Source of the DNA: Nitrososphaerales archaeon | GTDB lineage: Archaea; Thermoproteota; Nitrososphaeria; Nitrososphaerales; CADDZS01 | Length of the DNA stretch: 37,047 nucleotides | Reading direction: 5' to 3' | Assembly (NCBI GenBank): GCA_035533635.1 | Contig: DATLTL010000061.1 | Coordinates: 1-37,047 of the forward strand | Part shown: piece by piece, positions 1,555-30,316 of the stretch | Layout: each line of letters opens with the position of its first letter | Position numbering within the stretch: the first letter of the stretch is position 1 | Position numbers and translations under genes: made by a program | The notes under the pieces: model-generated | What the model saw: the letters and a program-made list of their open reading frames with translations, nothing else | Told to the model about the DNA's origin: nothing | The model's database searches: none

Positions 1555-3063
1555 TTGTTTATAGAACATGTGACAAATCAAAACGAAATGTCTGCAGGGG
1601 CATTAGCCGAACTCGACTCGAAGGCGAAGAGCGCGTTCGGTTCTTACGTGGTGAGAAAGGAGCTCGTGCAATCGCACGAGATAAGCAGGCTGCCTCGCTT
1701 CATCTCAGAGTACCTCGTGGCAAAGTTCTACCCTTCGGGAGAGCCGACACAAGACGACATACGTAAGCTTCAGGATTTCGTGACCGTACACTTTCCCGAG
1801 CTGAGAGACAAGGACAAGATACTGCATGACATCATGACGCAAGGCAGCTACACGCTGATGGACGAGTTCAAGGTTGAGACTGACATCAAGGGAGCAACGC
1901 ACCGCCTTTTCATTCCCTGTCTGAACATAAGAGACGCAAAGGTTCTCCCGACAATTCTGGACGAGAACACAGACCTGCTCCGTTCCGGGATGTGGGGCGT
2001 TGCGACGCTCAAGTACTTGCCCGACGGGGATCAGACGAAGGAAAGTGACACTTCTCCTGTGTTGATGACAAAGTTCACCCCATTCGAAGTGGTCAACGTC
2101 AAGCTTTCCGAGTTTGCCTCGAAGCGGCAGCTCTTCACAAGGAGTGAGTGGATCGACCTCCTCGTAAGGAGCATTGGGCTGAATCCAGATTCGTACAATC
2201 ATCACCAGAAACTCTTGCTCTTGCTGAGACTCGTTCCCCTCGTGGAGCCAAACTGCAACGTCCTGGAATTGGGACCGAAGGCAACCGGAAAGACCTACCT
2301 GTACAGGAACATATCGTATTCGACGAGGCTGATAGCTGGAGGAAGGGTGGGCCCGGCCACGCTGTTTTACAACATCGCGACAAAGACAGTGGGCGAGATC
2401 GGTGTGAGAGACTGCGTGGTGCTGGATGAGATAGGCAAGCTGACATTTTCAAACAGCGAGGAGATGATCGGAAAGCTGAAGGACTACATGGTTGACGGCT
2501 TCTTCGAAAGGGGTCCAAAAAAGGCGCACGCCAGCGCTTCAATGGTATTCATGGGCAATGCCGAGTTCGGTTCTTCGGGTGATTCTTCAGCACCATCAAC
2601 AAGAGATATTGTCAGCGCCCTCCCTCATTTCATGAGGGACTCTGCTCTCCTTGACAGAATCCATTGTTTCATCCCTGGATGGGAGCTTCCAAAGATAATG
2701 CAGTCGAGTGAACACCTCGCATCCGGGTACGGAATCGTTGCCGACTACCTTTCAGAAGTGTTTCACCAGATGTCGATGCAGGGATCGTACTCGGACATTT
2801 TCTGGGACAGAGTGAAGATCGAATCCTCAACGCAAGAAGGCGTCACGATAAGGGAGGAGAAGGCGATCAAGAAGGTGGCTTCGGGGATGCTCAAGCTACT
2901 CTGCCCCGACAAGGCGTGTGAGGAGCAGGACATCACAATAGCTATGAAGGTGGCGGTGGAGGGCAGGCAGAGGGTGAACGCGCTTCTAAGCTCGATCTCT
3001 CCAGAGGAGTTCGACAAGGACAAGGACATAAAGTTCTCTCCAAAATCCGCTTCGATCCCGTAA
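1555..3063 (+). CDS. BrxL-like AAA+ ATPase lacking the Lon protease domain (TIGR02688-like)
   Basis: The N-terminus (AFGSYVVRKELV...RLPRFISEYLVAKF) matches my recollection of the BrxL N-domain. Walker A GPKATGKT (nt 2272-2295), Walker B VVLDEIG, and the conserved IPGWELPK...GYGIVADYLSEVF segment are present. The ORF ends at about 500 aa with no Lon-type protease domain. Start is TTG 1555 abutting the upstream stop, or more likely ATG 1588 (MSAGALAELD). Confidence 0.7.
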   Translation: MFIEHVTNQNEMSAGALAELDSKAKSAFGSYVVRKELVQSHEISRLPRFISEYLVAKFYPSGEPTQDDIRKLQDFVTVHFPELRDKDKILHDIMTQGSYTLMDEFKVETDIKGATHRLFIPCLNIRDAKVLPTILDENTDLLRSGMWGVATLKYLPDGDQTKESDTSPVLMTKFTPFEVVNVKLSEFASKRQLFTRSEWIDLLVRSIGLNPDSYNHHQKLLLLLRLVPLVEPNCNVLELGPKATGKTYLYRNISYSTRLIAGGRVGPATLFYNIATKTVGEIGVRDCVVLDEIGKLTFSNSEEMIGKLKDYMVDGFFERGPKKAHASASMVFMGNAEFGSSGDSSAPSTRDIVSALPHFMRDSALLDRIHCFIPGWELPKIMQSSEHLASGYGIVADYLSEVFHQMSMQGSYSDIFWDRVKIESSTQEGVTIREEKAIKKVASGMLKLLCPDKACEEQDITIAMKVAVEGRQRVNALLSSISPEEFDKDKDIKFSPKSASIP

Positions 3064-3422: not shown

Positions 3423-4841
3423 TTGCAAGACTGCACGCTGAATTTCGACAAGGGAACCATAGTAGTGAGAGGGGATGTCAGGATCCCAAACACTTCGTGG
3501 GACGAAAGAATCAAGTCGTTCAGGGCTCAGGCTCTTCACTACAGCGAGATTGTGCAGTACCTGAAGCGGAGCGCTCTTCCATTTTCCGACTTTGTGCAGG
3601 AAGGTTTGATGCCCTGCCCAAATTTGAGCTGCCCATCCATAAAGCTCAGGGGATACCAGAAGCAGGCTCTTACGGCATGGGACAAGTCGGGAAGGAGGGG
3701 AACTATAGTCCTCCCGACAGGATCTGGAAAGACGGTCATAGCCCTGAAAGCTATTGAACTAGTTAACCAGTCTTCAATCATTCTTATCCCCACTCTTGAT
3801 TTGTTGGAGCAGTGGAGGAAAAGACTCGCAAAAGAGCTCAACGTAGAGGTCGGAGTATACGGCGGCGGCGAAAACACGCTAAAGCCAGTGACAGTTTCTA
3901 CATACGATACCGCATACATTAGGGCGGCCGAGCTCGGGAACAGGTTCTCCCTTCTCATCGCAGACGAGGTCCATCACATCGCTTCTGAAGGGTACAGGCA
4001 GATCGCCGAGATGTTCGCGTCTCCCTACAGGCTAGGGCTGACAGCCACATTCGAGAGGGAGGACATGCTTCATAATGAAATCCCACGGCTCGTCGGTGGG
4101 GTCGTGTTCCGGATGGAGCCTGAAGATCTGGCCGGCAGGTACCTCTCCAACTTCCGGATAGAAAGGCTCAGGGTAGACCTCAAGGAAAATGAGGCGCAGG
4201 AATACGAGAAATACCACTCAATATTTAGAGACTACCTGACGAAGAACAGGATAACTCTGAACACCCCAATACAATTCCAGAGGTTTGTGATGAGGAGCGG
4301 CAGAGATCCGGAAGCGAGAAGGGCGCTGCTCGCAAGGAACAAGGCTCAGAAGATTGCCTTCAACTCAGAATCCAAGATAGAGAAGCTGGAGGAGATTCTG
4401 AGAGAAAATAGGAATGAGAGAGTGATAATATTCACTCAGCACAACGATCTGGTGTACAGAATTTCAAGGAGGTTCCTGATCCCCTTCATAACTCACACAA
4501 CGAACAAGGACGAAAGACACACCGTTTTGGAGCTCTTCAACAGCGGAGAGTACAGGGCCGTCGTCACATCCAAGGTTCTGGACGAGGGGATTGATGTCCC
4601 TGAAGCTTCGCTCGGAATCATCCTCAGCGGAACGGGAAGCTTAAGGGAGTTTGTGCAGAGGCTTGGCAGGGTCTTGAGAAAAAAGACTGACAGAGACGCA
4701 AGGTTGATCGAGATAGTATCAAGCGAGACATCGGAGGTTAACACGAGTTCGAGGAGAAGGAGGGGCCACCGAGATGGTGCGTCATCTTCATTGTCTCCTG
4801 AAAAAGCGTCGTCCACAAGCTCTGGAAGATCATATCAATGA
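3423..4841 (+). CDS. xpb: XPB (Rad25/ERCC3-type) superfamily-2 DNA helicase
   Basis: N-terminal damage-recognition-like domain (LNFDKGTIVVRGDV...WDERIKSFRAQALHY). Helicase motifs LRGYQKQA, PTGSGKT, DEVHH and LGLTATFEREDM (the XPB-specific RED motif), plus VTSKVLDEGIDVPEA and REFVQRLGRVLR. Confidence 0.85.
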   Translation: MQDCTLNFDKGTIVVRGDVRIPNTSWDERIKSFRAQALHYSEIVQYLKRSALPFSDFVQEGLMPCPNLSCPSIKLRGYQKQALTAWDKSGRRGTIVLPTGSGKTVIALKAIELVNQSSIILIPTLDLLEQWRKRLAKELNVEVGVYGGGENTLKPVTVSTYDTAYIRAAELGNRFSLLIADEVHHIASEGYRQIAEMFASPYRLGLTATFEREDMLHNEIPRLVGGVVFRMEPEDLAGRYLSNFRIERLRVDLKENEAQEYEKYHSIFRDYLTKNRITLNTPIQFQRFVMRSGRDPEARRALLARNKAQKIAFNSESKIEKLEEILRENRNERVIIFTQHNDLVYRISRRFLIPFITHTTNKDERHTVLELFNSGEYRAVVTSKVLDEGIDVPEASLGIILSGTGSLREFVQRLGRVLRKKTDRDARLIEIVSSETSEVNTSSRRRRGHRDGASSSLSPEKASSTSSGRSYQ

Positions 4842-4953
4842 TTGGTATTGAAGAATCTCGGATAGATTGGATACAGCCAACTCGTTCATTCAACTCCAAG
4901 CAACTGATTTGATCTCGCTAAGTCGAACAAACAGGGGAGGTTGAAGTCTACAT

Positions 4954-6741
4954 ATGCTTCCATCAAATCTACTGAGAGCAAGGGTTTCGAGAGGAGGCGC
5001 GATAAGGCTCCTATATGCATCTCCCGTTACCACCGCAGAACTTGCGCACAGCCTGATCGACATTTTCAGGAAATCTCAGGGGATGAAGAAAGGTGACCTA
5101 TTCGAAAAGCTGGAAGAAGCAGAGTCGACTGGTGATAACGGCAAGAAAACAGACTCCACCATGGTAGACCATGACTACAAGCTCGTGAGGGGGCTTTCGG
5201 AACTTCTGATGAGGATGTGCGTTTTTGAATCTGAAAGAACTGAGATAGATCCCAAACGTGCAAGGGAGCTTGTCTTCAGGAAAGCAAGCAAGAGCAGGGC
5301 TACTTCAGTTTCAGAGATTGGTCGGGTGATTAGCGAAGCGGCCAGCGAGGTGGGGAAGAAGGAAGAAGATCTTCAAAGATCGCTCTGGGCCGACCTCGAC
5401 GAAGAGCTCATCATGAAACAGTTTAACCCGCCAAAGAGCGCGGAAGATCTGATCAGGTCATACAACCTGTCCCTAGCCCAAACCGCTCTTTTCAAATGTT
5501 CAAGGTTAGAGTTCACGGCCTCCGGGAACTGGAAGAACATCTTCTGGGGAATCAAAAGGCTCGGAATGATGTACGTAGTAGAAGCAGTCAATGGCAGTGG
5601 GAGCAGCAGTAGCAGCAGTAATAATAGAAGCAACAACATCGGTGACAAACCCGATTACTTGGTTTCTCTCGACGGCCCTCTTTCGCTTTTCAAGTGGACC
5701 GACAGATATGGGACCTCACTTGCCAAACTCCTTCCTCAGATAATAGGAAACGAGTCTTGGAGAATAAAGGCACAGATAGTCGATAAGAGGAAAAACAGGA
5801 TCCTTTCCTTCGAGGAATCGAGCGAAAACACAAGCGGGTTTTTTCCCACTGATGAGGCAATTGGAGGCAGACGACTGTACGACAGCAGCGTCGAAGAAAA
5901 GTTTGCAAAGAGTTTTGCCTCCCTCGGCGATACGGGGTGGACTCTCAGGAGGGAACCAGAGCCGCTCTTGACTGATCCTTCGCCCGAGACTGGGATCAGG
6001 CATATCATAATCCCAGATTTCAGCTTTGAGAAACGGGGTACGCGGAAGAAGGTCTATCTGGAAATAGTGGGATTTTGGACTCCAGAGTACCTGACAAGGA
6101 AGCTCGAGAAGCTCTCACTGCTCCCGAAGGATTCTGTTGATATCATAATAGCCATCGACGAGGATCTGGTATGCTCAAGCGGCGGGGATAGGAGGAAGTT
6201 CCTTCATCTTGTTCCTGCTCTAAACGAAAGAAGGGTGGTCACCTATTCATCAGGGAAGAAAGTTCCTCTCGCGCCGATTTTCGAACACCTCAAGCTGATA
6301 GACGATGAAATCGTAAAAGGAGAGACCCAGCGGATTTTGGAAATGCTCAGAGGGGCTGAATTCAAGCAGGATGTGATCCGGCTGGAAGAGATTGCCTCGA
6401 ACTGGGGCGTCACCCCCAAAGCAGTACGTGCCGCGCTCGTATCAGAGGGTGTGAATGGATATTCCAAGATCGGCGACCATTTGGTCAGCGAAAAGAAACT
6501 AGAAGAAGTAAGAAAGAAAATAGAAGTGCTCATTCACCGCACTGCCGGACATACTAAAAATGGATCAACAATAGCAGAAGTAGTGGGAGCAAAAGCAGAG
6601 GAAGAAGCAAGCCTGATGGAAGTGAACGATGCCATACAGTCGTGCGGCCTCGATCCACCCGGCGTTATAGAAGCGTTGGGTTACACCATTGTCTGGGAGG
6701 GACTGGATATGGATAAGAGTAGGGTGATCAGGGAAAAATGA
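4954..6741 (+). CDS. bax1: Bax1 / DUF790 family nuclease (XPB partner)
   Basis: N-terminus MLPSNLLRARVSRGGAIRLLY is typical of DUF790/Bax1. PD-(D/E)xK-like core IIIPDFSFE ... VYLEIVGFWTPEYL. It lies directly downstream of xpb, as in characterised archaeal XPB-Bax1 pairs. At 595 aa it is longer than I recall for typical Bax1 (roughly 400-460 aa), with a Ser/Asn low-complexity insert and a C-terminal extension. Confidence 0.75.
   Translation: MLPSNLLRARVSRGGAIRLLYASPVTTAELAHSLIDIFRKSQGMKKGDLFEKLEEAESTGDNGKKTDSTMVDHDYKLVRGLSELLMRMCVFESERTEIDPKRARELVFRKASKSRATSVSEIGRVISEAASEVGKKEEDLQRSLWADLDEELIMKQFNPPKSAEDLIRSYNLSLAQTALFKCSRLEFTASGNWKNIFWGIKRLGMMYVVEAVNGSGSSSSSSNNRSNNIGDKPDYLVSLDGPLSLFKWTDRYGTSLAKLLPQIIGNESWRIKAQIVDKRKNRILSFEESSENTSGFFPTDEAIGGRRLYDSSVEEKFAKSFASLGDTGWTLRREPEPLLTDPSPETGIRHIIIPDFSFEKRGTRKKVYLEIVGFWTPEYLTRKLEKLSLLPKDSVDIIIAIDEDLVCSSGGDRRKFLHLVPALNERRVVTYSSGKKVPLAPIFEHLKLIDDEIVKGETQRILEMLRGAEFKQDVIRLEEIASNWGVTPKAVRAALVSEGVNGYSKIGDHLVSEKKLEEVRKKIEVLIHRTAGHTKNGSTIAEVVGAKAEEEASLMEVNDAIQSCGLDPPGVIEALGYTIVWEGLDMDKSRVIREK
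5593..5637 (+). repeat. AGC/AGT/AAT/AAC trinucleotide low-complexity tract inside bax1 (encodes GSGSSSSSSNNRSNN)
   Basis: Direct reading: ggc agt ggg agc agc agt agc agc agt aat aat aga agc aac aac. Confidence 0.8.
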
Positions 6742-6815
6742 TCCAATCTGAAACTCCACGATTCAGTGTGGTGCTACGCCGAATCGCAATTTCGCATGGC
6801 CAATGTGTTTAGGAC

Positions 6816-14632: not shown

Positions 14633-16831
14633 TTGATAGTCAACGAAGCTCTTGAAGATGAGACGAAAGAAATACTTGATCCGTCCTCTGGCTCCGGTAC
14701 ATTTCTAGCAGCTAGTATTCGTAGAAAGAAAGAATTGATGTCGAAGAACAAGAAATACTCTGCTTCTGCTCAACTTGACTTGATTATGCGAACTGTCAGA
14801 GGGATCGATGTTCATCCTCTTGCAATTATACTGTCAAGGGCGAACTATTTGGCAGCTATTGGACCTGAACTATTATCTGCGCGACGGGGCGCTATTTCGG
14901 TTCCTGTGTATCTTGCAAACTCGCTCAGACTTCCTGAGACCGCAACTGATCTGCATCAAGGCGTCAGTTCGTACAAAATTGATGCTGAGAAAAAAATTCT
15001 AAGGTTGCCAATACAAATTGCAAAAGATCCTGATTTTACGGATATCGCAATAGAAACAGTTCGCGAATACTCTCACGAGGTAGCCTCTGGGCTTAGCCCA
15101 AAGATTGAGGAATTTGAAAACTTGCTTTATCAGAGATTAACCGCTCAACAGAAAAACAAGCTCGAAAAGAATGCTCCAAGCATTCTTCTTGAAACCGCAA
15201 TCACAATGGCTGATCTTATCAAAGAGGGAAAAGACACGATCTGGGCATTTATTCTGAAAAACATATACAAACCTCTTTTTCTCCAAGCCGAAAAATTTGA
15301 TGTCATTGTAGGTAACCCTCCGTGGCTTTCGTACCGATATGTTGAGAGTACTGAATACCAAGATTTTCTAAAGAATTTGATAATTGATAAGTACAATATA
15401 CTCGGCAAGGAAAGAGCAGAACTAATTACACAGATGGAACTTGCAACTCTCTTCCTAGCTAGAGCATCGGACTTGTTTCTGAAAAAGCAAGGAACAATTT
15501 ACTTTGTCATGCCCAGAAGTGTCTTCGTAAGTGACCAACACTTCAATTTTAGAGATGGAAGTTCCAAGCCTTCAATGAAACTTTTCCAGCTTTACGATCT
15601 TGAGGATGTCGAACCTCTTTTCAAAGTGCCTAGTTGTGTTGTGGCAGCGAAATTTGGAACTCCCGCCAAACAAGTCGACGCTAAGATCTTTGAAGGAAAA
15701 CTTCAGCGGAAAAATGCTAAATTGAAAGAAGCTTTGGCAGTACTCACTTCCACTGACAAGAAATTTCAGTGTTACAGGATCGGGCAGCGCTCATTTCTTG
15801 AAAGCGTGGAATTTCAGAAAGTATTACGAGCAATCGAAAAAAGCAAGCCCAGTGAATATTACAAGAATTTTACGCAAGGCGCAACGATTGTCCCGCGTCA
15901 ACTGTGGTTTGTTGAACCAGTTGTCCACGAGAAACTTGGAATGGACCCTTCTATGCCGAGACTCAAGACTTCTCAAAGAGCAATTGATCGAGCAAAAGAA
16001 CAGTACGCAGATGTACGAGTGGAAGGCGAAGTCGAATCTAGATTCCTATTCGGAGTCGCCACGGGATCGGAATTAGCCCCATTCTGCTCAACCACACTTC
16101 CAGTAGTTGTGTTACCTATTGAGGCAAGTGAAGGCAAGTACCACATGCTTGATGTTGAGGAATCTCAAAGGAAAGGATACTCGGGATTGAAAGAATGGCT
16201 TGTAACTGCCGAGAAAACTTGGAAAAAGAAGAGAGGTGAAAAGGCGACCAAGATGAGCATCTACCAAAGACTAAATTATTCGCACTGCCTGACCAACCAG
16301 AGTTCAAAAAAGAAATACAAAGTTCTCTATAATGCATCGGGAACATATCTTGTATCGTGTATAGTTAGAAATCAGAAAGAGGTTGTCGAATTAGAAAATT
16401 CACGAATTAATATTACTGGAGTAGTCGCCGATGCGAAAGCTTACTGGTTCGATACAAACAACCTAGATGAAGCTCTTTTTATCACATCCATGCTAAACTC
16501 GCCCATTGTTGACTCTCTTATCAAACCAATGCAGAGTCACGGACTTTGGGGAGAACGTGATATTCACAAGAAAGTGCTCGAGCTTCCTCTCCCAAAGTTT
16601 GATTCGTCGAATAAATCCCATATCGCCATGGTAGAACTTGCAAAAAAAGCACAAGTGAAAGCCGAAACTTTGATTCCAAGTCTTGAAAAGAAGTACGTCG
16701 GGATAGGAAAAATTAGACAACTTATCAAGGTCGAATTGGCAGAGGAATTACTCAACATAGACAAGATCATGCGCGAATTACTTAGTAAGATTGGTGATTT
16801 GGACAGTGGAATGGAAGGCTTTCTCAAGTAG
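14633..16831 (+). CDS. gamma-class N6-adenine DNA methyltransferase (M.TaqI/Eco57I-like), 5' end disrupted by an apparent frameshift
   Basis: Motif I ILDPSSGSGTFL and motif IV VIVGNPPWLSY are present. Motif X GEYYTPDWLAELIV is encoded in-frame just upstream of the called TTG start, but that frame is closed by TGA at 14594. ATG 14581 (MKRLLTG) lies in the +1 frame. The long C-terminal region is a presumed target-recognition domain. Confidence 0.85.
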   Translation: MIVNEALEDETKEILDPSSGSGTFLAASIRRKKELMSKNKKYSASAQLDLIMRTVRGIDVHPLAIILSRANYLAAIGPELLSARRGAISVPVYLANSLRLPETATDLHQGVSSYKIDAEKKILRLPIQIAKDPDFTDIAIETVREYSHEVASGLSPKIEEFENLLYQRLTAQQKNKLEKNAPSILLETAITMADLIKEGKDTIWAFILKNIYKPLFLQAEKFDVIVGNPPWLSYRYVESTEYQDFLKNLIIDKYNILGKERAELITQMELATLFLARASDLFLKKQGTIYFVMPRSVFVSDQHFNFRDGSSKPSMKLFQLYDLEDVEPLFKVPSCVVAAKFGTPAKQVDAKIFEGKLQRKNAKLKEALAVLTSTDKKFQCYRIGQRSFLESVEFQKVLRAIEKSKPSEYYKNFTQGATIVPRQLWFVEPVVHEKLGMDPSMPRLKTSQRAIDRAKEQYADVRVEGEVESRFLFGVATGSELAPFCSTTLPVVVLPIEASEGKYHMLDVEESQRKGYSGLKEWLVTAEKTWKKKRGEKATKMSIYQRLNYSHCLTNQSSKKKYKVLYNASGTYLVSCIVRNQKEVVELENSRINITGVVADAKAYWFDTNNLDEALFITSMLNSPIVDSLIKPMQSHGLWGERDIHKKVLELPLPKFDSSNKSHIAMVELAKKAQVKAETLIPSLEKKYVGIGKIRQLIKVELAEELLNIDKIMRELLSKIGDLDSGMEGFLK

Positions 16832-17058: not shown

Positions 17059-18036
17059 TTGGCGGACAGCTCTAAGGGCAGTAGTGTCGAAATGCAACGA
17101 GCAGGGAAACCAAGTTCCACTCATTCGCAAAACGAAAAACCTGATTGGCTACTGGATCGCATCAAGACTTTGGAAGGTTACAACGAGAAGGCCCGAGATC
17201 TACTCAAACAGACAGGAGAAGTATACGAAGTCGGACCGCAAGCTGTGTTGAAGCTCAGCATTTTAGCATACTACCTTGATGTCTATACCCAGATCATTAA
17301 GAAGCGGTTCCCAAAGTCATACTTTCTTGACTTGTTTGCTTCTTCGGGAATCAATAAGATTGAGAACACTGATGAGGTGATATTGGGTTCACCTCTCATA
17401 GCTGAATACATTCCAGACAAGAAATTTGATAAGCTCATTCTCTTTGAAAGCAAGGAAGCGAGAGCGAAGGCGCTTCAAAAACTGCTTCCAAAAGCAAAGG
17501 TCGTTCACGGTGATGTTAACGCCCTCGATCTTACAAACTACTTCAAGGACGAGGAGGGCAAAATTGTTCCATTGTTCTGCTTTGCAGATCCAGAAGGTAT
17601 GGAGCTAGATTGGTCTACCATGACGCAGGTTCTGAAGACTTGGTCTGATGTCATGATAAATTACCATCCCGATGCTGTAAGAAGAACCGCAGGTCGAGCA
17701 TTCAAGAAGGATAAACCGTACGAAGATAGGATGAATAGTTTCTTTGGAACCGACCACTGGAAGCTCTTTCAGACTTTTGAAAGCGACGATGCTTTTTTGA
17801 ATTTATATATCTCCCAGATTCGTCAATTCAAGGAAATGGTCATACCGATCAGGGTCAGAGGACAGAAGAGTTATTACTATTACATTATATTCGCTGTTAA
17901 GAAAACAAATGGTACTCAAGGTTGGATCGATGCTATTGAGAGAGCGAAGAAACACATCGAAAGCTCCGATGCTTCAAGAACGCTGACAACGATCGATATA
18001 CAGCAAGGGAAACAACAAACGCTGTCCTTTGACTAG
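17059..18036 (+). CDS. tcmP: three-Cys-motif partner protein TcmP (TIGR04474-like)
   Basis: LKLSILAYYLDVYTQII...YFLDLFASSGINKI resembles the TcmP signature (K...Yl..Y...yiDlFAGpG). It sits immediately upstream (33-nt gap) of a Gp37/Gp68-family gene, which is the defining context of TcmP. The start may be ATG 17092. Confidence 0.65.
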   Translation: MADSSKGSSVEMQRAGKPSSTHSQNEKPDWLLDRIKTLEGYNEKARDLLKQTGEVYEVGPQAVLKLSILAYYLDVYTQIIKKRFPKSYFLDLFASSGINKIENTDEVILGSPLIAEYIPDKKFDKLILFESKEARAKALQKLLPKAKVVHGDVNALDLTNYFKDEEGKIVPLFCFADPEGMELDWSTMTQVLKTWSDVMINYHPDAVRRTAGRAFKKDKPYEDRMNSFFGTDHWKLFQTFESDDAFLNLYISQIRQFKEMVIPIRVRGQKSYYYYIIFAVKKTNGTQGWIDAIERAKKHIESSDASRTLTTIDIQQGKQQTLSFD

Positions 18037-18069: not shown

Positions 18070-18873
18070 ATGGAGAGCCTATCTGGTCTAAGGAATGCGA
18101 GATGTCCTGAATTGGGAGACAAAAGCGCCATAGAATGGACTGACGCCTCGTGGAATCCTACCACTGGTTGCGATAAGGTATCACCTGGTTGCAAAAACTG
18201 CTATGCGGAACGTCTTGCTGGCAGATTACAACTTATGGGCAATCCGAAATACAAGAACGGTTTCAAGTTCACTGTCCAAGAGAGCGCCCTAGACCTCCCC
18301 CTCAAATGGAAGGAGCCTAGGAAGATATTCGTTAATTCAATGAGTGATCTGTTTCATGAAGAAATGCCCTTTGGGTATCTCAAGAGGTGCTTCGATATTA
18401 TGAAGAAGGCTGATCGGCACAGATACCAAATATTGACCAAAAGACCTGAAAGGATGCAGGAATTCGCGGAGTTCTATGGAGAAATCCCTGACCACGTATG
18501 GATGGGAACTTCGGTTGAAATGGCCTTCTACAAGAAACGGATCGATATTCTGAGAAACATAGAAGCAAAGATAAGGTTCATCAGCTTTGAACCATTGCTA
18601 GGAGCAATCGGCAAAGTGAACTTTAGAGGAATTTCTTGGTCAATAGTGGGTGGTGAGAGTGGACCTGGGCACAGGCCGATCGAAAAGGAATGGGTGCGAG
18701 AGATAAGAGATCAGTGCAAGACTCAAAAAGTTGCCTTCTTCTTCAAACAATGGGGTGGTGCCACGCCAAAGTCAGGTGGACGACTTCTTGATGGCAAGTT
18801 ATGGAACCAATACCCTGAACCTGCGCCTAACTACACTAAGCGGACAATGCAACCACTACAGCTAGTATCATAA
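18070..18873 (+). CDS. DUF5131 / phage Gp37-Gp68 family protein (PF07505-like)
   Basis: N-terminal IEWTDASWNPTTGCDKVSPGCKNCYAERLA is the family hallmark with its three-Cys motif. FISFEPLLG and VGGESGPG...FFFKQWGG are also family-typical. Confidence 0.8.
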   Translation: MESLSGLRNARCPELGDKSAIEWTDASWNPTTGCDKVSPGCKNCYAERLAGRLQLMGNPKYKNGFKFTVQESALDLPLKWKEPRKIFVNSMSDLFHEEMPFGYLKRCFDIMKKADRHRYQILTKRPERMQEFAEFYGEIPDHVWMGTSVEMAFYKKRIDILRNIEAKIRFISFEPLLGAIGKVNFRGISWSIVGGESGPGHRPIEKEWVREIRDQCKTQKVAFFFKQWGGATPKSGGRLLDGKLWNQYPEPAPNYTKRTMQPLQLVS

Positions 18874-19117: not shown

Positions 19118-20188
19118 TTGTCGCAGGTCCAAATTCCAAGCGATCCGATCAGTGAAAGTTTCGCACTCTGCAAGAACACACTGGAGAACATTGGGCAACA
19201 TACTCTTACCATGCGCGCGCTGGATTCGATACTCGATCAATTCATCAACGATGAAGATGCAATCAAGGGCGACGAGACGACCGAACAGATAGATTTCAAA
19301 CCTCATGATGAGATTTCACTCTCTACAGTTAATCCAACAATTGGAATTCCCAAAACAGTCTATGCGGTTGATTCTAGCAGCATCGTCTTGGGTCAAGGAG
19401 TAAAGGGGGGTGTTCTCTTCAGCATCAGAGTTGTCGTTCTGAGCTGGAACCCAAAGGTAGGAAAGAGATCAATAGTGGACAGATTCGAAGTTCCAGGCTT
19501 TGTTTCGAATGAGAACAAAGAGGATTTGTATCATGGGCTCCGATCGAAGCTATGGAATCTGAGCCGAGAAGATGTCAAGGCGCCGGAACCATTCAAGATG
19601 GTCGACAGGATCAGAAATATTTACGAAAGGTATGCACAGATCGAGATTTCAAAGAAGATTGATGATTCCATATTACTGGTTGACGGATCTCTGACAGCTG
19701 ATACAGTGGATACTCCTTCAGCTGTGTTGGAAGAAGTCCTGAAGAACGCTGCCACTAATAGCTCCGACGTAGTCGCCATATCCAAAAAGACAAGATTGAC
19801 TACGGCGTCCGGAACAAGAATACTCGAACTGCTCGGCGAAAATACGAAGATTCCAGCTATAGTTCCAATTTCGAAACTTCTTTCTCCAAGGGCGCCATAC
19901 CGGTTGCTCGGTGAGGTCTATGTGGGAAGATTGAGTGGTGTGCCGATTTCTTTTCGAATCGATGTGAGCTCAAAGAGAGATCATGCACACGTCTTTGGAG
20001 ACCTTCTGGCGAGCGTGCCTCTCGAGAGTGGATATCCTGTTCCTCTGATTCATGCGCATGTTCATTGCTATTATAATTCATTTGATGTACTAGGCGTGAG
20101 AGCATTCTTGGCCAAGAAGCGCGTCCCGATGACTGAGGAATTTGATATAAGACGGATTCTGTTTGGCATGTATGGCGGAGGAGCTTGA
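19118..20188 (+). CDS. nurA: NurA-domain nuclease
   Basis: VYAVDSSSIVLG and ILLVDGSLTAD match the NurA catalytic Asp motifs. It is followed after 5 nt by a HerA-type ATPase gene. Confidence 0.6.
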   Translation: MSQVQIPSDPISESFALCKNTLENIGQHTLTMRALDSILDQFINDEDAIKGDETTEQIDFKPHDEISLSTVNPTIGIPKTVYAVDSSSIVLGQGVKGGVLFSIRVVVLSWNPKVGKRSIVDRFEVPGFVSNENKEDLYHGLRSKLWNLSREDVKAPEPFKMVDRIRNIYERYAQIEISKKIDDSILLVDGSLTADTVDTPSAVLEEVLKNAATNSSDVVAISKKTRLTTASGTRILELLGENTKIPAIVPISKLLSPRAPYRLLGEVYVGRLSGVPISFRIDVSSKRDHAHVFGDLLASVPLESGYPVPLIHAHVHCYYNSFDVLGVRAFLAKKRVPMTEEFDIRRILFGMYGGGA

Positions 20189-20193
20189 ATTAG

Positions 20194-21687
20194 TTGATAG
20201 TTATTGAGAAATACTTTGACCGACTTTCAGTACTTTACAATCCCTTGACCGAGCAGGCAAGAGTTGGAGAAAGTCTCCTAATTCATGAGCCCGGAATCCA
20301 AAATGGACCCAATGGAGTAATTGCTCAGATAATCGAGGAAAGACCCTATGTTCCCATGGGAATGAGAGATAGCCTTCTTATCGAATCACTTACACCGGAA
20401 ATAACCACTAGCACCGCGCAACCAGAAGAGCTGGGTGCTGCTCGTTCTGAACTGCGAAATCAAAAAACTATCATCGCCAAGATCAGACTTAGCGCGATTG
20501 TAGACAAGGGAAAATCTCTTCCCTCATCTCTTGTTCCATGGACTGGCTGGAGCCCCACTCCGAGCTCTAAGGTCACAAAGATTTCAGATTCAGAGATTCT
20601 CAGATTCATCGATCTCAAGGGAACTACTAAGAATATTGCCTCGATTGGAAAGACTACTGGCGACACTCCTTTTGATTTTAATCTATACTACCTTCACGGC
20701 ATCAGTACTCTTGTTGGAGGGCGGGGAACTGGCAAGAGTCATCTCGCGAAGAAATTTGCTCTAAAGCTTGTTGATGCGGGACGCCAAGTGATTATTTTTG
20801 ACATCAATGATGAGTGGACTGCCATGGAAAAAGGCGCAGATGGCAAGGAGAGCCCATATGCAAAGAAAATTGTAAGGGCAAACCCCGGGGAATCACTCTC
20901 TTTTGATCTGAAGTATCTTGGAAAGATAGTTTTCATTTCTATGCTGAAGATGATGAATCTTGATCCATCTACCTCTTCTGTTCAAACTCTCATGAACAAG
21001 TGGGACGAGCTCGACAGGGAGAAGAAACTCACATTCGATAATTTGAAGAAGACCGCCGAGTCGACAAATGAAAAAGTGAAGGAAGCGCTTCAAACTAGAT
21101 TTGCACAGTTGGAGAATAGCGGAATAATAGCGTCTGGCGAAAACAATGGAACGAGTATACAGGCGTTGCTTGAAAAGATAAAGGAGGGAGGACTTCTTGT
21201 CGTAAACCTCAAAGACAAGCCAAAGATTTCGCAGTACGTCATCGTTCAGCTCTTCACAAGCAAACTTGCGAACATTCTCTCCGATCCAAGATCAACCCCG
21301 CTTGTCCTGATTGTCGAAGAAGCGCAGACATACATGAGCAATTTCGATATTGAGGAAATCGTAGCAAGGCTCAGGCACCTGGGGCTCCATCAGATCTATA
21401 TCACCAACAGCCCACAGAGCTTGACTCCGTTCCTCATGAGCCACATTTCGAACTGGTTCCTATTCAATCTCGTGAATCAGCAGGACATTGAATATCTTCA
21501 ACGATCTCTGCCCCTTGACCTGGAGTCTGCCAGTGTTCTCATCAGAATGCTTCCCCCCAGACAGGCGCTTGTTGTGATAAACGAGAACTACAAGGACTCG
21601 ACAAAGAATTATCCTTTCGTAGTCAAGGTTGATCCAATTCCATATCAGACCGCAGGAGTGACAAGAGAGCTTTTTGAAGCTCCTTAG
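20194..21687 (+). CDS. herA: HerA-type (DUF87/FtsK-HerA superfamily) ATPase
   Basis: N-terminal HAS-barrel-like segment (ARVGESLLIHE...GVIAQIIEE). Walker A GGRGTGKSHLAKKF and Walker B LVLIVEEAQ. The size (497 aa) and its pairing with nurA fit HerA. Confidence 0.7.
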   Translation: MIVIEKYFDRLSVLYNPLTEQARVGESLLIHEPGIQNGPNGVIAQIIEERPYVPMGMRDSLLIESLTPEITTSTAQPEELGAARSELRNQKTIIAKIRLSAIVDKGKSLPSSLVPWTGWSPTPSSKVTKISDSEILRFIDLKGTTKNIASIGKTTGDTPFDFNLYYLHGISTLVGGRGTGKSHLAKKFALKLVDAGRQVIIFDINDEWTAMEKGADGKESPYAKKIVRANPGESLSFDLKYLGKIVFISMLKMMNLDPSTSSVQTLMNKWDELDREKKLTFDNLKKTAESTNEKVKEALQTRFAQLENSGIIASGENNGTSIQALLEKIKEGGLLVVNLKDKPKISQYVIVQLFTSKLANILSDPRSTPLVLIVEEAQTYMSNFDIEEIVARLRHLGLHQIYITNSPQSLTPFLMSHISNWFLFNLVNQQDIEYLQRSLPLDLESASVLIRMLPPRQALVVINENYKDSTKNYPFVVKVDPIPYQTAGVTRELFEAP

Positions 21688-23841: not shown

Positions 23842-24411
23842 TCATCTGATATGTCGTTCCAAACGGCTTTTTGTTTGGTTATACCATGTTTTGTAGTATA
23901 TTTGCCATGATCTACTTGCAAATATCACTTCTTCAGAAGCGTCTTTTGGTAAGCTTGAGTACATTAAGCGATAGGTCAAACGTAATCCAAGATTCGACTT
24001 GATTCTAGATCCAAGCCAACTAGAAATATTTTGAATCTCTGTGGCGGTGTCATGGTCAGAGTTATCCGCAGTTCGTCTTGCTACGTCTTTAGTAAATTCT
24101 GGCGCATCATCCGTGATGGTCATGTCGTAACCGTTTATGAAACAAAAGAATGCCGTTGTCATTAGAGCCGTTCTTTTGTTTCCATCTGTAAAAGGATGGA
24201 AATTGATGTATGCATACATCAGTGCGCTTATCTTGCTAAGAAGGCTAGGGAATGGGATAAAATGATAAACATCTGTCTTTACCCATTCAATCGAGCCTTC
24301 AACCATCCCCTTCGACATCCATCCTTGATCGCCTCTTAGCTTGATCAAGACATCGTGAAAGTCTTGAACGTATTTGGGTGTAGGATAGATTATCCTGTTT
24401 GGATGAGCCAA
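23842..24411 (-). CDS. Doc/Fic family protein (toxin-type)
   Basis: Fic-fold active-site motif HPFTDGNKRTAL, the Doc-type HxFx(D/E)GNKR variant. Size is 189 aa. Confidence 0.8.
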   Translation of the reverse strand: MAHPNRIIYPTPKYVQDFHDVLIKLRGDQGWMSKGMVEGSIEWVKTDVYHFIPFPSLLSKISALMYAYINFHPFTDGNKRTALMTTAFFCFINGYDMTITDDAPEFTKDVARRTADNSDHDTATEIQNISSWLGSRIKSNLGLRLTYRLMYSSLPKDASEEVIFASRSWQIYYKTWYNQTKSRLERHIR

Positions 24412-25122: not shown

Positions 25123-26337
25123 TTATTTCTTGGGTTGAAATGATTGAATCACTGTGGTCTGATTCCTATTCGCTTGAAGAATGGAGGACAATGGGATTAT
25201 CATTTGTTCTCCTTCCAGCTTCACCATTCCAGGTTCGAATTTCCTTACAAGTACGGACAGTTCGTACGGGTTGATGATTCCTACAGGAGGATTGTTAGAC
25301 TCAGGTTGGTGAATATTATTGGTAACTACAAGTGGTATGAACTTGGTTGCAATCGGTTTTTTGTCAAGAAATTGTGAGAGGCCGCTGTCCTTATGGAATT
25401 TCACATGTGATTCATCCGCCAACCATACTGCTTTGTGATAAATCTCGACCTTGGCTTGAGCAATAATGTTCTTGTTATGAATTGGATGTCTCGACTCGAA
25501 CTTTTGCTCCTTGCATTCAGTCACAAAGACGAACTCATCTTTCTTCGCGATTACGTCAATGTCAGTTCGACTCTTTTTACCTGTAGGCTCAAAACTTCCT
25601 ATTATCTCAATGGGTTTTGGATAAACGTCAACAGAGTCTGCCAAAAGTATGTCTCTGACTCTCCTTTCAAATAGTCTTCCCTTAAAATTAGAATCACAAA
25701 AGTTGTCAAAGATGTATTCAGGTTGTGAAACTTGGCAAAGAAGCACGCGTTTACCGTTGAACATACTCATTCCGTCCACTTCGATGATAGGCAATTCATT
25801 CAACTCTTCCGGATTTGAAGCGGTCAATAGTTGTACAATCTGACCTACTGACTGTTTTCTTCCTGCACTTCTTCTCAGGCTGGTAACTAGGTCGGCTTTG
25901 GGTTTTGCATAGACACTGTCACCACTTTTGCGGATTAATTCTAGCATGGAATCAGTCATTTCCAGAAAATTCTCGTATGTGTATCCAAAATACGTCTTGA
26001 AATTCTCTTGAAAACCTGGGGCTTCCGAAAGTTTGTTTATCTCCTCGAGTTCCCTCCTAAGAGATTCTCTGTTCTCAGGACTATCGAATCCTTTTGACAG
26101 ATTCTGCAACGAAGTTCGACCCTCCTTCTTCAGATCTGTAAACCAATTAACGGTGCCAGCGCTACCAACTTCTATGTCTCTGACAATCACGGACTTGATT
26201 TTGCTTGATTGCTCATTCACTTGGTCAGGATATCGAATTTCCAGTATGTCATCGTCTTCGTCAACTTCAAATATCGCCGACGTCTCGACTAGACCCTTCA
26301 ATAACAATTCTCTGTGGACTAACGCAATCAGTTTCAA
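25123..26337 (-). CDS. hypothetical protein with a C-terminal PD-(D/E)xK (restriction-endonuclease-fold) nuclease-like core
   Basis: GRLFERRVRDILLA ... RTDIDVIAKKDEFVFVTECKEQK fits the helix-E / D / ExK arrangement. The N-terminal 200 aa or so have no recognised family. Confidence 0.5.
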   Translation of the reverse strand: MKLIALVHRELLLKGLVETSAIFEVDEDDDILEIRYPDQVNEQSSKIKSVIVRDIEVGSAGTVNWFTDLKKEGRTSLQNLSKGFDSPENRESLRRELEEINKLSEAPGFQENFKTYFGYTYENFLEMTDSMLELIRKSGDSVYAKPKADLVTSLRRSAGRKQSVGQIVQLLTASNPEELNELPIIEVDGMSMFNGKRVLLCQVSQPEYIFDNFCDSNFKGRLFERRVRDILLADSVDVYPKPIEIIGSFEPTGKKSRTDIDVIAKKDEFVFVTECKEQKFESRHPIHNKNIIAQAKVEIYHKAVWLADESHVKFHKDSGLSQFLDKKPIATKFIPLVVTNNIHQPESNNPPVGIINPYELSVLVRKFEPGMVKLEGEQMIIPLSSILQANRNQTTVIQSFQPKK

Positions 26338-26804: not shown

Positions 26805-27346
26805 TGCTCTGATTTGTTCACGCCCAGAAATCAGACGCTTAGTTAAGACATCTCACCAATCCAAAGTCCAATTCGTGTCGGGAAAGTATTAGGACTTTGT
26901 AATAACTATGGAGATTCTTAGGTCATTTCTATATACATGCAGGCAGTCTGCCTGTCTCTCTAACTATCTCTTGGTCTCTGGCAATCTCTGGCAAGCAGGC
27001 ATACAGGGAAGCAGACAAGCAGGGGCAAGAAAGAGAGGCTTGAATGGTGGGTTTACGCCAGTCTTGTCCTTGCTAGTTTTGTACAAGATTTTCAAGAGAT
27101 ACAAGTTCATTGGAGGTAAAATGTACTCCAAATTCGCTGGAAAGTGGTATTTGACTGTCCTAATTGTTTTGTTCATTTCATACATCATTTATTTGACTTA
27201 CGCACTGCAGCCCACTTTGGCAATAACTACTGTCGCGACATCAACCGCGTCCACTGGATAGGTATCAAAATACTCTAACGAATAGTAAATGTCTGAGTGA
27301 CGACGTCCTAATTTATATTCTCGGGCAGGCATCACAGCTCTGTGCA

Positions 27347-27961
27347 ATGACTACAGAAATGCAAAGCAAGGAAAAACTTGCGGAATCTGAATATTTCCTA
27401 GAGCTTCTTCGAAGCAACTTTGGAGACCTAAGAATTATGAAATATTGCTTCTCCGCATTCATGAGCGCAGTTCACAGCACAATGGACATCATGCTGTACG
27501 ACTGTGCTGAGGCGTTTGAATTGCGTCTCACGCGAGAGGAGAGATTCGAACAAAGAGACTTCGCACTAGTTGCCCGAGCAAAAGAAAATAAAAACGCTTT
27601 GGAATTTCTTGCATGGTGGAAGCAAAAGGTGGGACTCCTGAGCAAGAATCCCCTGTGGAATACACGACATGTGATAAACCATCGTGGTTATCCTCCAGTG
27701 AAGCAGACTGTATTTGTTTCTGGAACTATTCTGGCTCAATCCAGTGTCAGTTACGAACTTCCTTCTATTGATGAAGTCATCGTTAGTGGTTCCGTAGGGC
27801 CCGTATTACCCAGTAACGCTTGGCAGAATATTGTTACAAATCCAGAAATCTATCTTGAGGAGTTTCCAGACATCGACCTTCGAAAACTATGTCAGATGTT
27901 ATGGAGCGAAGTCGGAGCCATCGTTTCAGAGGCCGAAAAGAAGTTCTTGAGTGCGCGATGA
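27347..27961 (+). CDS. hypothetical alpha-helical protein with a possible HEPN Rx4H motif
   Basis: Helical N-half (SEYFLELLRSNF...FSAFMSAVHSTMDIML) followed by NTRHVINHRG (R-x4-H). It overlaps the next gene by 11 nt. Confidence 0.35.
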   Translation: MTTEMQSKEKLAESEYFLELLRSNFGDLRIMKYCFSAFMSAVHSTMDIMLYDCAEAFELRLTREERFEQRDFALVARAKENKNALEFLAWWKQKVGLLSKNPLWNTRHVINHRGYPPVKQTVFVSGTILAQSSVSYELPSIDEVIVSGSVGPVLPSNAWQNIVTNPEIYLEEFPDIDLRKLCQMLWSEVGAIVSEAEKKFLSAR

Positions 27962-28838
27962 TGAGAAATCTGGCTCTAGGTCAAGAAATCACATGAATGC
28001 AGAGAGTAAAGGACTTCTGATACATATTGGAGCGGACACATCGAATGATGAAACTCTCGGAATCGTTGGTCCAGTTTTTCATGACAATCAATTTGAATTC
28101 ATCCCTATCGTTGAAACAATGCCGAGACAAGGTGCTCCAACTTATAGAGACATTAGGTGCACATCACGGCAATCTAGCCCCTACAACAGAAATCTTTCGT
28201 TCTACGTTCGTGAGCCCCTTGAACAGAAACCATGTCATTACGACCCTAACCCTGAAGGTTTCACTTATTCCGAGCCTCCTGATGCGAGAAGGGGAAAGCA
28301 GTTACTTCGCTTGTTACCAGATGATTTCATTTTCTTCGTTGCCAGTCTAGCCCAGTATTCGGAAGAGAGTTACCGCGAAGTTGATACATCAACAATTCGA
28401 CGACATCAGGCAGGACAAATGACAAAATATCTGATTGGCTATTTCAAGATAAGAGAAGTATTCCAAGTTGACACCAGTGCGACGGAGCAGTCTCGCCACT
28501 ATTCCATAAGAATAGCCCGAAACAACGCGGAAATAGATTCCTCTATGCTCGAGGCGGTTGAACCACAAATCAGGATCAACGCTCACTTCCTAAGACCATC
28601 TGACCGATTCATATGTGCGGTTGGCAATAGAATCGGAATGAAAGGGCAACAACGGCTGTCTCTGTTATTACCTGAAGCTATCCCGCTTACTGAAGGCTGG
28701 CCATTCAAACCGCTTCCCTTCGCCGAAAGGGTTTATGGGAAACTGAACTATCCGAGGGGTCACAAGTGGATTCCTAACGATTTGCGTCCAGATGGATTGC
28801 AGACTCTATTGTCCCGGATTTCAGAATTAGGAGAATGA
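27951..28838 (+). CDS. hypothetical protein resembling the Nmad3-type 'nucleotide modification associated' family
   Basis: LLIHIGADTSNDETLGIVGPVFHDNQFEFIPIVE follows the pattern h-h-x-G-x-D-S/T...G..(G/S)P(I/V)F.D(G/N).F.F(I/L)PI that I associate with that family. HYDPNPEGFTYSEP and DDFIFFVASL follow. The likely start is the Met of MNAESKG (27993). Confidence 0.35.
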   Translation: MRDDEKSGSRSRNHMNAESKGLLIHIGADTSNDETLGIVGPVFHDNQFEFIPIVETMPRQGAPTYRDIRCTSRQSSPYNRNLSFYVREPLEQKPCHYDPNPEGFTYSEPPDARRGKQLLRLLPDDFIFFVASLAQYSEESYREVDTSTIRRHQAGQMTKYLIGYFKIREVFQVDTSATEQSRHYSIRIARNNAEIDSSMLEAVEPQIRINAHFLRPSDRFICAVGNRIGMKGQQRLSLLLPEAIPLTEGWPFKPLPFAERVYGKLNYPRGHKWIPNDLRPDGLQTLLSRISELGE

Positions 28839-28845
28839 ATGGGAC

Positions 28846-29466
28846 TTGCAGCACTCCCAATTTCTCCGTAGCTACGTAATGACTGCTGACACGGGCTTTG
28901 CACCTTCTGTAGATAGGGACGGAAGATATCTGACCTTGTGCACTTGTAAAGGATATCACATACGAAGCGTTGCAAATGAAAACGACTGGATAATGGGCAC
29001 AGTTGGAACAAAACTCGCGAGCCTTCACGACGAGAACAATTTTGAGAGTGTAGTCTATCTAGCAAAGATTACAGAGCCTCCAATGAGTTTCAGAAAATAT
29101 TGGGAAGATGATAGATTCCTGAATAGATGCGATAGAGTCTATTCCCCGAGGGAGGATGGTGGAGGCTACATGTCGGTGCAATGGAATCCTCACCTCAATA
29201 ATAATAATCTCGAACCCGACGACACCAAACCTGACAGAGTTTTAATCTCGGATTACTTCTATTATTTTGGCCGCGACCCAATACGTTTGAGCAGTAGATT
29301 CCGTCGTTTCGTAGCGAGAGGTAGAGTGACTCGCAAATTCCCAATAGAGTCTATCCGTGAACTCCTCGACGACTTTGAAAGAAATTGTAGCGGGTTACGA
29401 AACAAGTGTCGTCCACCTTCCGACCCAAATCCCAGATGTCCTGAGGGGACCCTTTGTAGTGACTAA
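28846..29466 (+). CDS. hypothetical protein resembling the Nmad2-type 'nucleotide modification associated' family
   Basis: LRSYVMTADTGFAPSVDRDGRYLTLCTCKGYHIRSVANENDWIMG matches the Y.(V/M)..D.GFAPN...(L)TLA.CKP.IR...GDWI.G pattern recalled for this family. It starts 7 nt after the previous gene. Confidence 0.45.
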   Translation: MQHSQFLRSYVMTADTGFAPSVDRDGRYLTLCTCKGYHIRSVANENDWIMGTVGTKLASLHDENNFESVVYLAKITEPPMSFRKYWEDDRFLNRCDRVYSPREDGGGYMSVQWNPHLNNNNLEPDDTKPDRVLISDYFYYFGRDPIRLSSRFRRFVARGRVTRKFPIESIRELLDDFERNCSGLRNKCRPPSDPNPRCPEGTLCSD

Positions 29467-29839: not shown

Positions 29840-30316
29840 ATGAAACTCGTGCCCAGAGATTCGATTGACTGGAGTACCCGGAACAGCAGGAGTAGAAGTA
29901 GAATCGTAGAATTCGAAAACTTGGTAAAAAAAGCGACAATTGAAGAAGAAGCGACTGCAATTAAACTAACTCTTGGTCAAGCGAACGCACTTATTCGTAA
30001 AGTTAAGGCCGAAGTTGAATTCGCAGAGGTATTTTCGACTAGAGAAAAAGACGGCACGTACTCTGTCAAGGGATACGCAGAGGTATTTTCGACTAGAGAA
30101 AAAGACGGCACGTACTCTGTCAAGGGATACATTCGGGAAGATTTTGTCAAAATTAAATTGGTTCCAAACCCGCAGTTTCTTGTTAAAGAAGTTAGCAAGA
30201 ACTTTTTCTCAGTAAAATGCAATCACAAGAATTGCAGAGCGGGCGGCGTATTTTCAAAAGAAGACATGGAGTATTTCATTGCTTCGCATCCCGAGTATCA
30301 CGACAATAAGCCATGA
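29840..30316 (+). CDS. hypothetical protein containing a perfect 18-aa internal duplication
   Basis: AEVFSTREKDGTYSVKGY occurs twice in tandem. The C-terminus has KCNHKNC. Confidence 0.5.
   Translation: MKLVPRDSIDWSTRNSRSRSRIVEFENLVKKATIEEEATAIKLTLGQANALIRKVKAEVEFAEVFSTREKDGTYSVKGYAEVFSTREKDGTYSVKGYIREDFVKIKLVPNPQFLVKEVSKNFFSVKCNHKNCRAGGVFSKEDMEYFIASHPEYHDNKP
30023..30130 (+). repeat. perfect 54-bp tandem duplication (2 copies)
   Basis: gcagaggtattttcgactagagaaaaagacggcacgtactctgtcaagggatac at 30023-30076 is repeated exactly at 30077-30130. Confidence 0.95.

Follow-up and report, generated by a model that had tools for sequence, protein, structure and literature searches.

Layout of the three-gene locus

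The window analysed here is a 37,047-nt stretch of a Nitrososphaerales archaeon (contig DATLTL010000061.1, assembly GCA_035533635.1). At positions 27347-29466 it carries three consecutive plus-strand genes, which are the subject of this report: gene 1 probably encodes a HEPN-type RNase, gene 2 encodes a protein of the Nmad3 family, and gene 3 encodes a protein of the Nmad2 family. The features of the locus, in the order in which they lie, are as follows.

27313..27319, plus strand: TATA-like element TTTATAT, ~28 nt 5' of the gene 1 ATG; putative archaeal promoter, read from the sequence
27347..27961, plus strand: gene 1, 204 aa, ATG start, taken from the listing of open reading frames (ORFs)
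27951..28838, plus strand: gene 2 (Nmad3), 295 aa from GTG 27951 or 281 aa from ATG 27993
28846..29466, plus strand: gene 3 (Nmad2), 206 aa, TTG start, 7 nt past the gene 2 stop

A first-pass annotation of this DNA had described three tightly packed genes with an 11-nt overlap followed by a 7-nt gap. The ORFs are exact, as is the 7-nt spacing from gene 2 to gene 3. Genes 1 and 2 overlap by 11 nt only if gene 2 starts at GTG 27951; with ATG 27993 they are 31 nt apart. The gene callers used on three near-identical public contigs chose ATG 27993 in two cases and GTG in one; with either start, the spacing of genes 1 and 2 is operon-like. The TTG start of gene 3 is supported by its N-terminal strand FLRSYVMTAD, which is kept in homologues (Y10 is nearly invariant), and the Pfam scores of genes 2 and 3, together with the 320 homologous cluster representatives of gene 1 (both described below), establish that these are real genes and not chance ORFs. 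No TATA-like element comparable to that of gene 1 was seen 5' of gene 2 or gene 3, and a sigma-70 promoter scan returned none on the plus strand around the gene 1 box. The lone TATA-like box 5' of gene 1 suggests that the trio is expressed as a single leaderless archaeal mRNA. The flanks of the trio show no meaningful repeats marking cassette boundaries, and the window as a whole contains no tRNA and no Rfam match.

Identities of the three proteins

The Nmad families are said, in Pfam descriptions and in work from the Aravind laboratory, to be named for their association with nucleotide-modification genes. Gene 3 matches Pfam Nmad2 (PF18753) with an E value of 1.3e-24 and 87.3 bits (cut-off 26.1) over profile positions 6-183 of 200, and gene 2 matches Pfam Nmad3 (PF18754) with an E value of 9e-14 and 52.1 bits (cut-off 27). 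The Nmad3 and Nmad2 assignments of the first-pass annotation are thus borne out, both lying above the Pfam curated cut-offs, and the motifs that it quoted for the three proteins (IHIGADT, GPVFHDNQFEFIPI, DTGFAP, LTLCTCK, DWIMG and RHVINH) are all present.

In an alignment of 14 Nmad2 homologues, including that of the E. coli system DS-4 (discussed below), the conserved residues are D15, G17, F18, A19, P20, C34, R40, D47, D96, Y99 and D126, all of which are found in gene 3; they cover the D-x-G-F-A-P and T-C-K/IR/DW motifs of the family. Relative to the bacterial, TIR-partnered Nmad2 proteins, the archaeal-type subgroup has extra residues inserted behind DTGFAP and lacks some in the 'RNGS...GDNIYH' region. 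A viral origin of genes 2 and 3 was considered and rejected, as searches of 50,697 phage records and of IMG/VR contigs yielded no homologues.

The alignment of gene 2 to PF18754 covers profile positions 2-157 of 247, and the C-terminal NAH..R block of 26 homologues is present as well; gene 2 also matches PHROG 34025 (E 5.5e-9). Across these 26 diverse homologues, with gene 2 as the reference and in the 281-aa numbering, the invariant residues are P27, F34, E35, H82, D84, P85, D111, A117, G149, N196, A197 and H198, a pattern that suggests an active or ligand-binding site. The closest labelled relatives of gene 2 come from metagenome-assembled genomes of Bathyarchaeota and Heimdallarchaeota. We rejected a paralogous relation between Nmad3 and Nmad2 (hhalign probability 0.05%) and, at this sensitivity, the idea that Nmad3 is a cryptic TIR protein (hhalign probability 0.1% against the TIR proteins of bacterial Nmad2 loci). 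Comparison of Nmad2 and Nmad3 with PUA/ASCH, which was limited to a single ASCH neighbour, gave no signal. In some Nmad3 proteins (L028, L030, L032, L034, L037, L039 and L040, from Poribacteria, and L013, L020 and L042) the N terminus is extended by ~200-350 aa that match nothing in Pfam; these lengths were measured on stop-to-stop frames, of which part may be untranslated.

Gene 1 itself has no match in Pfam, NCBIfam, PHROGs, PADLOC or the PDB sequences (0 families at E<=1 in Pfam, NCBIfam and PADLOC), and a direct profile assignment was dropped for want of any library match. An exhaustive HMMER search (E<=1e-3) places it in a family with 320 cluster representatives, most of which are ~200-aa proteins that stand alone. 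R107 and H112, which form the R-x4-H motif RHVINH, are conserved in at least 90% of the 76 aligned full-length members and are invariant in the 12 closest relatives, which share the block PLW..R....HRGYP; in gene 1 the residues RG come right behind the RHVINH motif. Pfam HEPN_Cthe2314 (PF18730) is weakly matched by 8 of the 76 family members (best E 6.9e-6), and HEPN_RiboL-PSP is matched by one.

An AlphaFold2 (AF2) model of gene 1 computed from the family alignment (predicted local distance difference test, pLDDT, 88.2; predicted TM score 0.79) shows a bundle of helices (6-23, 28-56, 69-98, 106-113 and 178-201), the fourth of which carries the motif, plus a variable, low-confidence insert of ~45 residues (122-166) and a small beta element. 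In a Foldseek search against the PDB none of the hits was significant (best E 0.76, TM 0.25-0.38), and HEPN toxins occupied most of the top ranks, including chains of HepT-MntA, SO_3166 and the sacsin HEPN domain; the viral library returned nothing. Based on these data, gene 1 is probably a HEPN-type RNase and the proposed effector of the locus. We call this probable and not proven because the support consists of the R-x4-H motif of the family, the weak profile matches of its relatives, the helical model and non-significant fold ranks. The suggestion of a HEPN protein in the first-pass annotation is plausible on this indirect evidence, gene 1 having no profile match of its own.

Like known HEPN toxins (HepT of HepT-MntA and the Cthe_2314-like proteins of PF18730), gene 1 combines an R-x4-H motif that has a polar residue after the Arg with a helical bundle and a defence-island site; unlike them, it has the variable insert and small beta element and no MNT antitoxin neighbour, as no nucleotidyltransferase was found among its scanned neighbours. 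We found no homologues of gene 1 on plasmids. Its sole close homologue, at 44% identity, is encoded on a contig that carries no Nmad gene. A conserved partner of the gene 1 family was sought at L001, L055, L056 and L063 and rejected, the neighbours at these loci being unrelated to one another. At L063, the gene immediately 5' of the gene 1 relative (5001-5660) encodes 166 aa (4481-4981) and has RNKIFH, a textbook motif of the HEPN type; two HEPN-like genes therefore stand in tandem there.

Nmad3-Nmad2 pairs and their relation to known systems

Archaeal-type Nmad2 pairs with Nmad3 in the window and at L057, L006/L007/L059-61 and L009. On L057, an independent contig, an Nmad3 gene (42% identical) abuts an Nmad2 gene (45% identical) with a TAG-ATG junction. 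Directly 5' of this pair, in the position that gene 1 occupies in the window, is a gene for a 268-aa PLDc_2 protein (E 1.3e-8, HSK motif), a PLD nuclease that weakly matches the PLD domain of the restriction enzyme NgoFVII (E 0.0026). A Heimdallarchaeota locus, L011, has a gene with weak resemblance to Nmad2 (hhalign probability 60%, E 9e-5), then Nmad3 and then a PLDc_2 nuclease, the last with the canonical HxKxxxxD motif as HLKVILTD. At L006/L007 and L059-61 Nmad3 is followed by Nmad2, with Nmad3 frameshifted, and at L009 both genes are present and both are fragmented.

The first-pass annotation had presented HEPN, Nmad3 and Nmad2 as a trio. As a conserved, fixed trio this does not hold, because each member occurs separately: gene 1 relatives without Nmad genes, Nmad3 without Nmad2 at 33 loci, and Nmad2 with TIR. 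What remains is a modular combination of a nuclease with Nmad3 and Nmad2, which recurs with PLD in place of HEPN. The conserved core, the variable nucleases, the mobile-element neighbours and the frequent pseudogenisation, taken together, are what one would expect of a modular defence system.

Nmad3 is also found outside such pairs. Other archaeal Nmad3 genes lie beside AbiE and TIR genes plus two uncharacterised proteins at L005, beside an integrase and an ASCH protein at L010, and beside small uncharacterised proteins at L058. At the 33 Nmad3 loci from species-representative genomes no Nmad2 lies within 6 kb, and a broad Nmad2 hidden Markov model (HMM) likewise detected none there. At 14 of these 33 loci, and on the metagenome contig L062, Nmad3 adjoins queG (15 bacterial loci in all, with housekeeping synteny); the two genes are co-directional with a 1-4 nt overlap in eight loci and divergent in six. 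The Dehalococcoidia/Chloroflexota examples are L014-L026, L031, L033, L036 and L062; at L016, for instance, queG spans 4833-5984 and Nmad3 5986-6744. The queG product there is an epoxyqueuosine reductase (Fer4_16, QueG_DUF1730 and HEAT), with IMPDH-like, GHMP kinase and aspartate kinase genes as neighbours. The adjacency of queG and Nmad3 may reflect a link to queuosine/7-deazaguanine or only the synteny of a lineage. Nmad3 is split over two or three frames at L006/L007 (163-1069), L009 (7064-8495, where Nmad2 is affected as well), L012 (5932-6880) and L018 (5869-6780), which represents either pseudogenisation or homopolymer errors of long-read assemblies.

In bacteria the partner of Nmad2 is a different one. 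A ~160-aa ThsB-like TIR gene lies immediately upstream of Nmad2, abutting or overlapping it, in 10 of the 10 loci inspected (L043, L044, L047-L052, L054 and E. coli DS-4); at L054 a TIR-SLOG(cluster 2) protein sits in between. These loci often carry MazG-like and UDG, kinase, thymidylate-synthase or TIR-SLOG genes, the MazG-like NTP pyrophosphohydrolase and UDG often coming after Nmad2. They lie, on plasmids and in metagenomes, within mobile elements or regions rich in defence genes, close to SIR2, patatin and cyclic-oligonucleotide-based anti-phage signalling (CBASS) genes. The arrangement looks like a widespread, unnamed cassette. Cassettes of the type TIR-Nmad2(-MazG-UDG / TIR-SLOG), as found at L043-L054, are given as predicted and unvalidated in the DefensePredictor study (Fig. 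6F and S12, PMC13092281). Like these cassettes, the trio has an Nmad2 gene immediately preceded by a small partner gene; unlike them, its partner is Nmad3, which has no hhalign similarity to TIR proteins.

The nearest experimental reference point is DS-4 (working name NTTI), which the same study lists as one of 42 E. coli systems validated against phage (DeWeirdt, Mahoney and Laub, Science 2026; PMC13092281, Tables S6, S8 and S11). Its five genes, according to that source, encode a thymidylate-synthase-like protein, a deoxynucleoside monophosphate (dNMP) kinase, a 5-hydroxymethyldeoxyuridine (5-hmdU)-DNA-kinase-like protein, a ThsB-like TIR protein and Nmad2, whose own role within DS-4 is not dissected in the text consulted. 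The first-pass statement that Nmad2 and Nmad3 lack biochemical characterisation is right as to biochemistry, but it misses that a system containing Nmad2 is validated as anti-phage (PMC13092281). The DS-4 Nmad2 protein WP_047174762.1 shares 35% identity with gene 3 (E 4e-20), and in both systems Nmad2 is the last gene, overlapping its upstream partner in DS-4. In contrast to DS-4, the trio contains no TIR, synthase or kinase gene, and Nmad3 stands directly upstream of Nmad2 where DS-4 has the ThsB-like TIR gene; DS-4, for its part, lacks Nmad3 and HEPN. In the literature we found no mention of Nmad3, or of an Nmad3-Nmad2 pairing, in a defence context.

Two further comparisons are looser. Phage thymidine-hypermodification clusters carry Nmad-family genes, such as Nmad5 in M6-like phages (PMC9476957, PMC8989533), and the trio has in common with them the name 'Nmad' and a connection to nucleotide chemistry; however, the window has no hydroxymethylase, kinase or aGPT-Pplase, and its setting is that of cellular defence. 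PUA-Cal-HAD (bioRxiv 10.64898/2026.01.15.699771) and Thoeris resemble the trio, as a conceptual analogy only, in joining a conserved nucleotide-centred module to alternative effectors, whereas neither PUA/ASCH nor TIR similarity was detected in Nmad2 or Nmad3.

Defence-island setting and competing readings

The window around the trio looks like an archaeal-type defence island. Its GC content is ~0.50 at 1-13 kb and falls to 0.41-0.45 at 13-35 kb, and the low-GC part carries the following genes.

14633-16831: type IIG restriction-modification-like gene (E 1.6e-58)
17059-18036: PDC-M41A (E 3e-16)
18070-18873: DUF5131
19118-21687: NurA with a HerA/mad8-like ATPase (HerA/mad8-like E 1.6e-20)
23842-24411: Fic
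25123-26337: PDDEXK-like

Toward the other end, BrxL (1555-3063; PADLOC E 9e-110) occurs with no other recognisable BREX (bacteriophage exclusion) genes and adjoins XPB with Bax1/DUF790; the window further holds ArsR-type regulators. A TIR HMM found nothing in the window, and among the window genes flanking the trio there is no thymidylate-synthase-like, kinase, 5-hmdU-kinase-like, MazG or UDG gene. Just 3' of the trio, a perfect 54-nt tandem duplication (30022-30130) lies within an ORF for a 158-aa protein (29840-30316) and encodes the repeated peptide AEVFSTREKDGTYSVKGY. A longer public copy of the window contig, the 43-kb JGI contig L002, has an IS66-family transposase gene at 20034-20615, ~8 kb 3' of the trio; with the IS110 element next to the related Nmad3 at L008, it gives the impression of a region prone to mobile-element traffic.

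We propose, with a probability of roughly 0.45, that the trio forms one operon and a modular antiviral or abortive-infection cassette, in which an Nmad3-Nmad2 core is joined to an exchangeable nuclease effector, a HEPN RNase here and a PLD nuclease elsewhere. The proposal builds on what was observed: the domains of the proteins, tightly packed genes in one orientation, a setting among defence genes, an Nmad pair that recurs and a nuclease that is exchanged. As part of it, the Nmad3-Nmad2 pair would be the archaeal counterpart of the TIR-Nmad2 pair of bacterial nucleotide-metabolism-type defence cassettes, and the analogy with those cassettes suggests that the core handles a nucleotide-derived cue. 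The pair would recognise or make such a cue, for example a modified nucleotide or base arising in infection; the cue would lead to release of the HEPN RNase, which would cleave RNA through its R107/H112 dyad, and the infected cell would stop growing.

Several observations weigh against this proposal. None of the three proteins is matched by a PADLOC model, and neither a HEPN profile nor a solved HEPN structure matches gene 1 significantly. Neither Nmad2 nor Nmad3 has a relative among PDB structures by single sequence or by profile (RNase P protein matches of Nmad3 are at chance level, E ~0.1), and an AF2 model of Nmad2 from a four-sequence alignment (pLDDT 36) gives no usable fold. Some Nmad3-Nmad2 pairs have no nearby nuclease, with an IS110 transposase upstream at L008, and those copies are frameshifted. 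The nuclease swap is seen at two other loci only, one of them (L011) through a weak hhalign match. The gene 1 relatives at the four loci examined for a conserved partner are solitary amid unrelated genes, and therefore the link between gene 1 and the Nmad genes rests on one contig lineage and the PLD analogy. Finally, most bacterial Nmad3 homologues lie beside queG, and Nmad3 is therefore not intrinsically a defence gene.

The solitary habit of the gene 1 family also feeds another explanation, namely that gene 1 is an unrelated neighbour, either a stand-alone HEPN-like toxin or another island gene, and that the functional unit is the Nmad3-Nmad2 pair only. Members of the family, which has 320 representatives, are found alone in varied contexts with no Nmad genes, the pair exists without gene 1, and defence islands pack unrelated genes tightly. 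This explanation seems to us rather unlikely, as genes 1 and 2 share a strand with a spacing of -11 or +31 nt that leaves little room for a separate gene 2 promoter, the sole TATA-like box seen lies 5' of gene 1, and L057 has a different nuclease in gene 1's position. It is similarly doubtful that the locus follows a restriction-modification logic, whereby Nmad3 and Nmad2 would, as their family name suggests, modify host nucleic acid or the nucleotide pool and the adjacent nuclease would attack the unmodified invader. A HEPN RNase would be an odd restriction arm for DNA modification, and the TIR partner of bacterial Nmad2 points to signalling or nicotinamide adenine dinucleotide (NAD) chemistry instead of self-marking; nor is a modified base known from a system with Nmad2 or Nmad3. 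Such a logic would suit the neighbours of bacterial Nmad2 (thymidylate-synthase-like, kinase, 5-hmdU-kinase-like, MazG and UDG genes), but the synthase, kinase, MazG and UDG companions are all missing beside the trio. The weak resemblance of the L057 nuclease to the PLD domain of NgoFVII argues in its favour, as do the invariant His, Asp, Asn and His of Nmad3, which suggest an enzyme.

A housekeeping role, in which Nmad3, and with it the pair, would act in tRNA or queuosine-type base metabolism and the island location would be incidental, is very improbable. The 15 bacterial Nmad3 loci directly beside queG, eight of which have both genes in one direction and a stop codon that overlaps the next start, speak for it; against this, the queG-linked Nmad3 proteins are only 25-30% identical to gene 2 and come without Nmad2, no queuosine genes lie near the trio in the window, and archaeal Nmad3 shows an accessory-gene pattern, near integrases, insertion sequence (IS) elements, AbiE, TIR and nucleases and often pseudogenised. 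The cassette reading also has a bolder form, for which we would claim little likelihood at present: the Nmad3-Nmad2 pair would be the core of an undescribed archaeal immune system, with Nmad3 in TIR's place making or sensing a nucleotide-derived signal and the HEPN RNase or PLD DNase executing the response. If true, archaea would have in Nmad3 and Nmad2 a counterpart of Thoeris-like signalling, possibly tied to 7-deazaguanine/queuosine-type bases in view of the queG-Nmad3 linkage in Chloroflexota.

The domains themselves were already catalogued and the logic of defence islands is established; what is new is the substitution of Nmad3 for TIR, the exchange of HEPN and PLD, and the archaeal setting. 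Nmad2 has recently joined the experimentally validated defence domains through DS-4, and the present locus gives it another partner that looks obligate, with Nmad3 standing in for TIR, while showing the Nmad3-Nmad2 pair, in an archaeal version, recruiting different nucleases. Should the pair do no more than modify nucleic acid or nucleotides, the modification that it defines would still be a new one. The trio is thus a compact, three-gene test case for the chemistry of two orphan domains and for archaeal immunity based on nucleotide cues.

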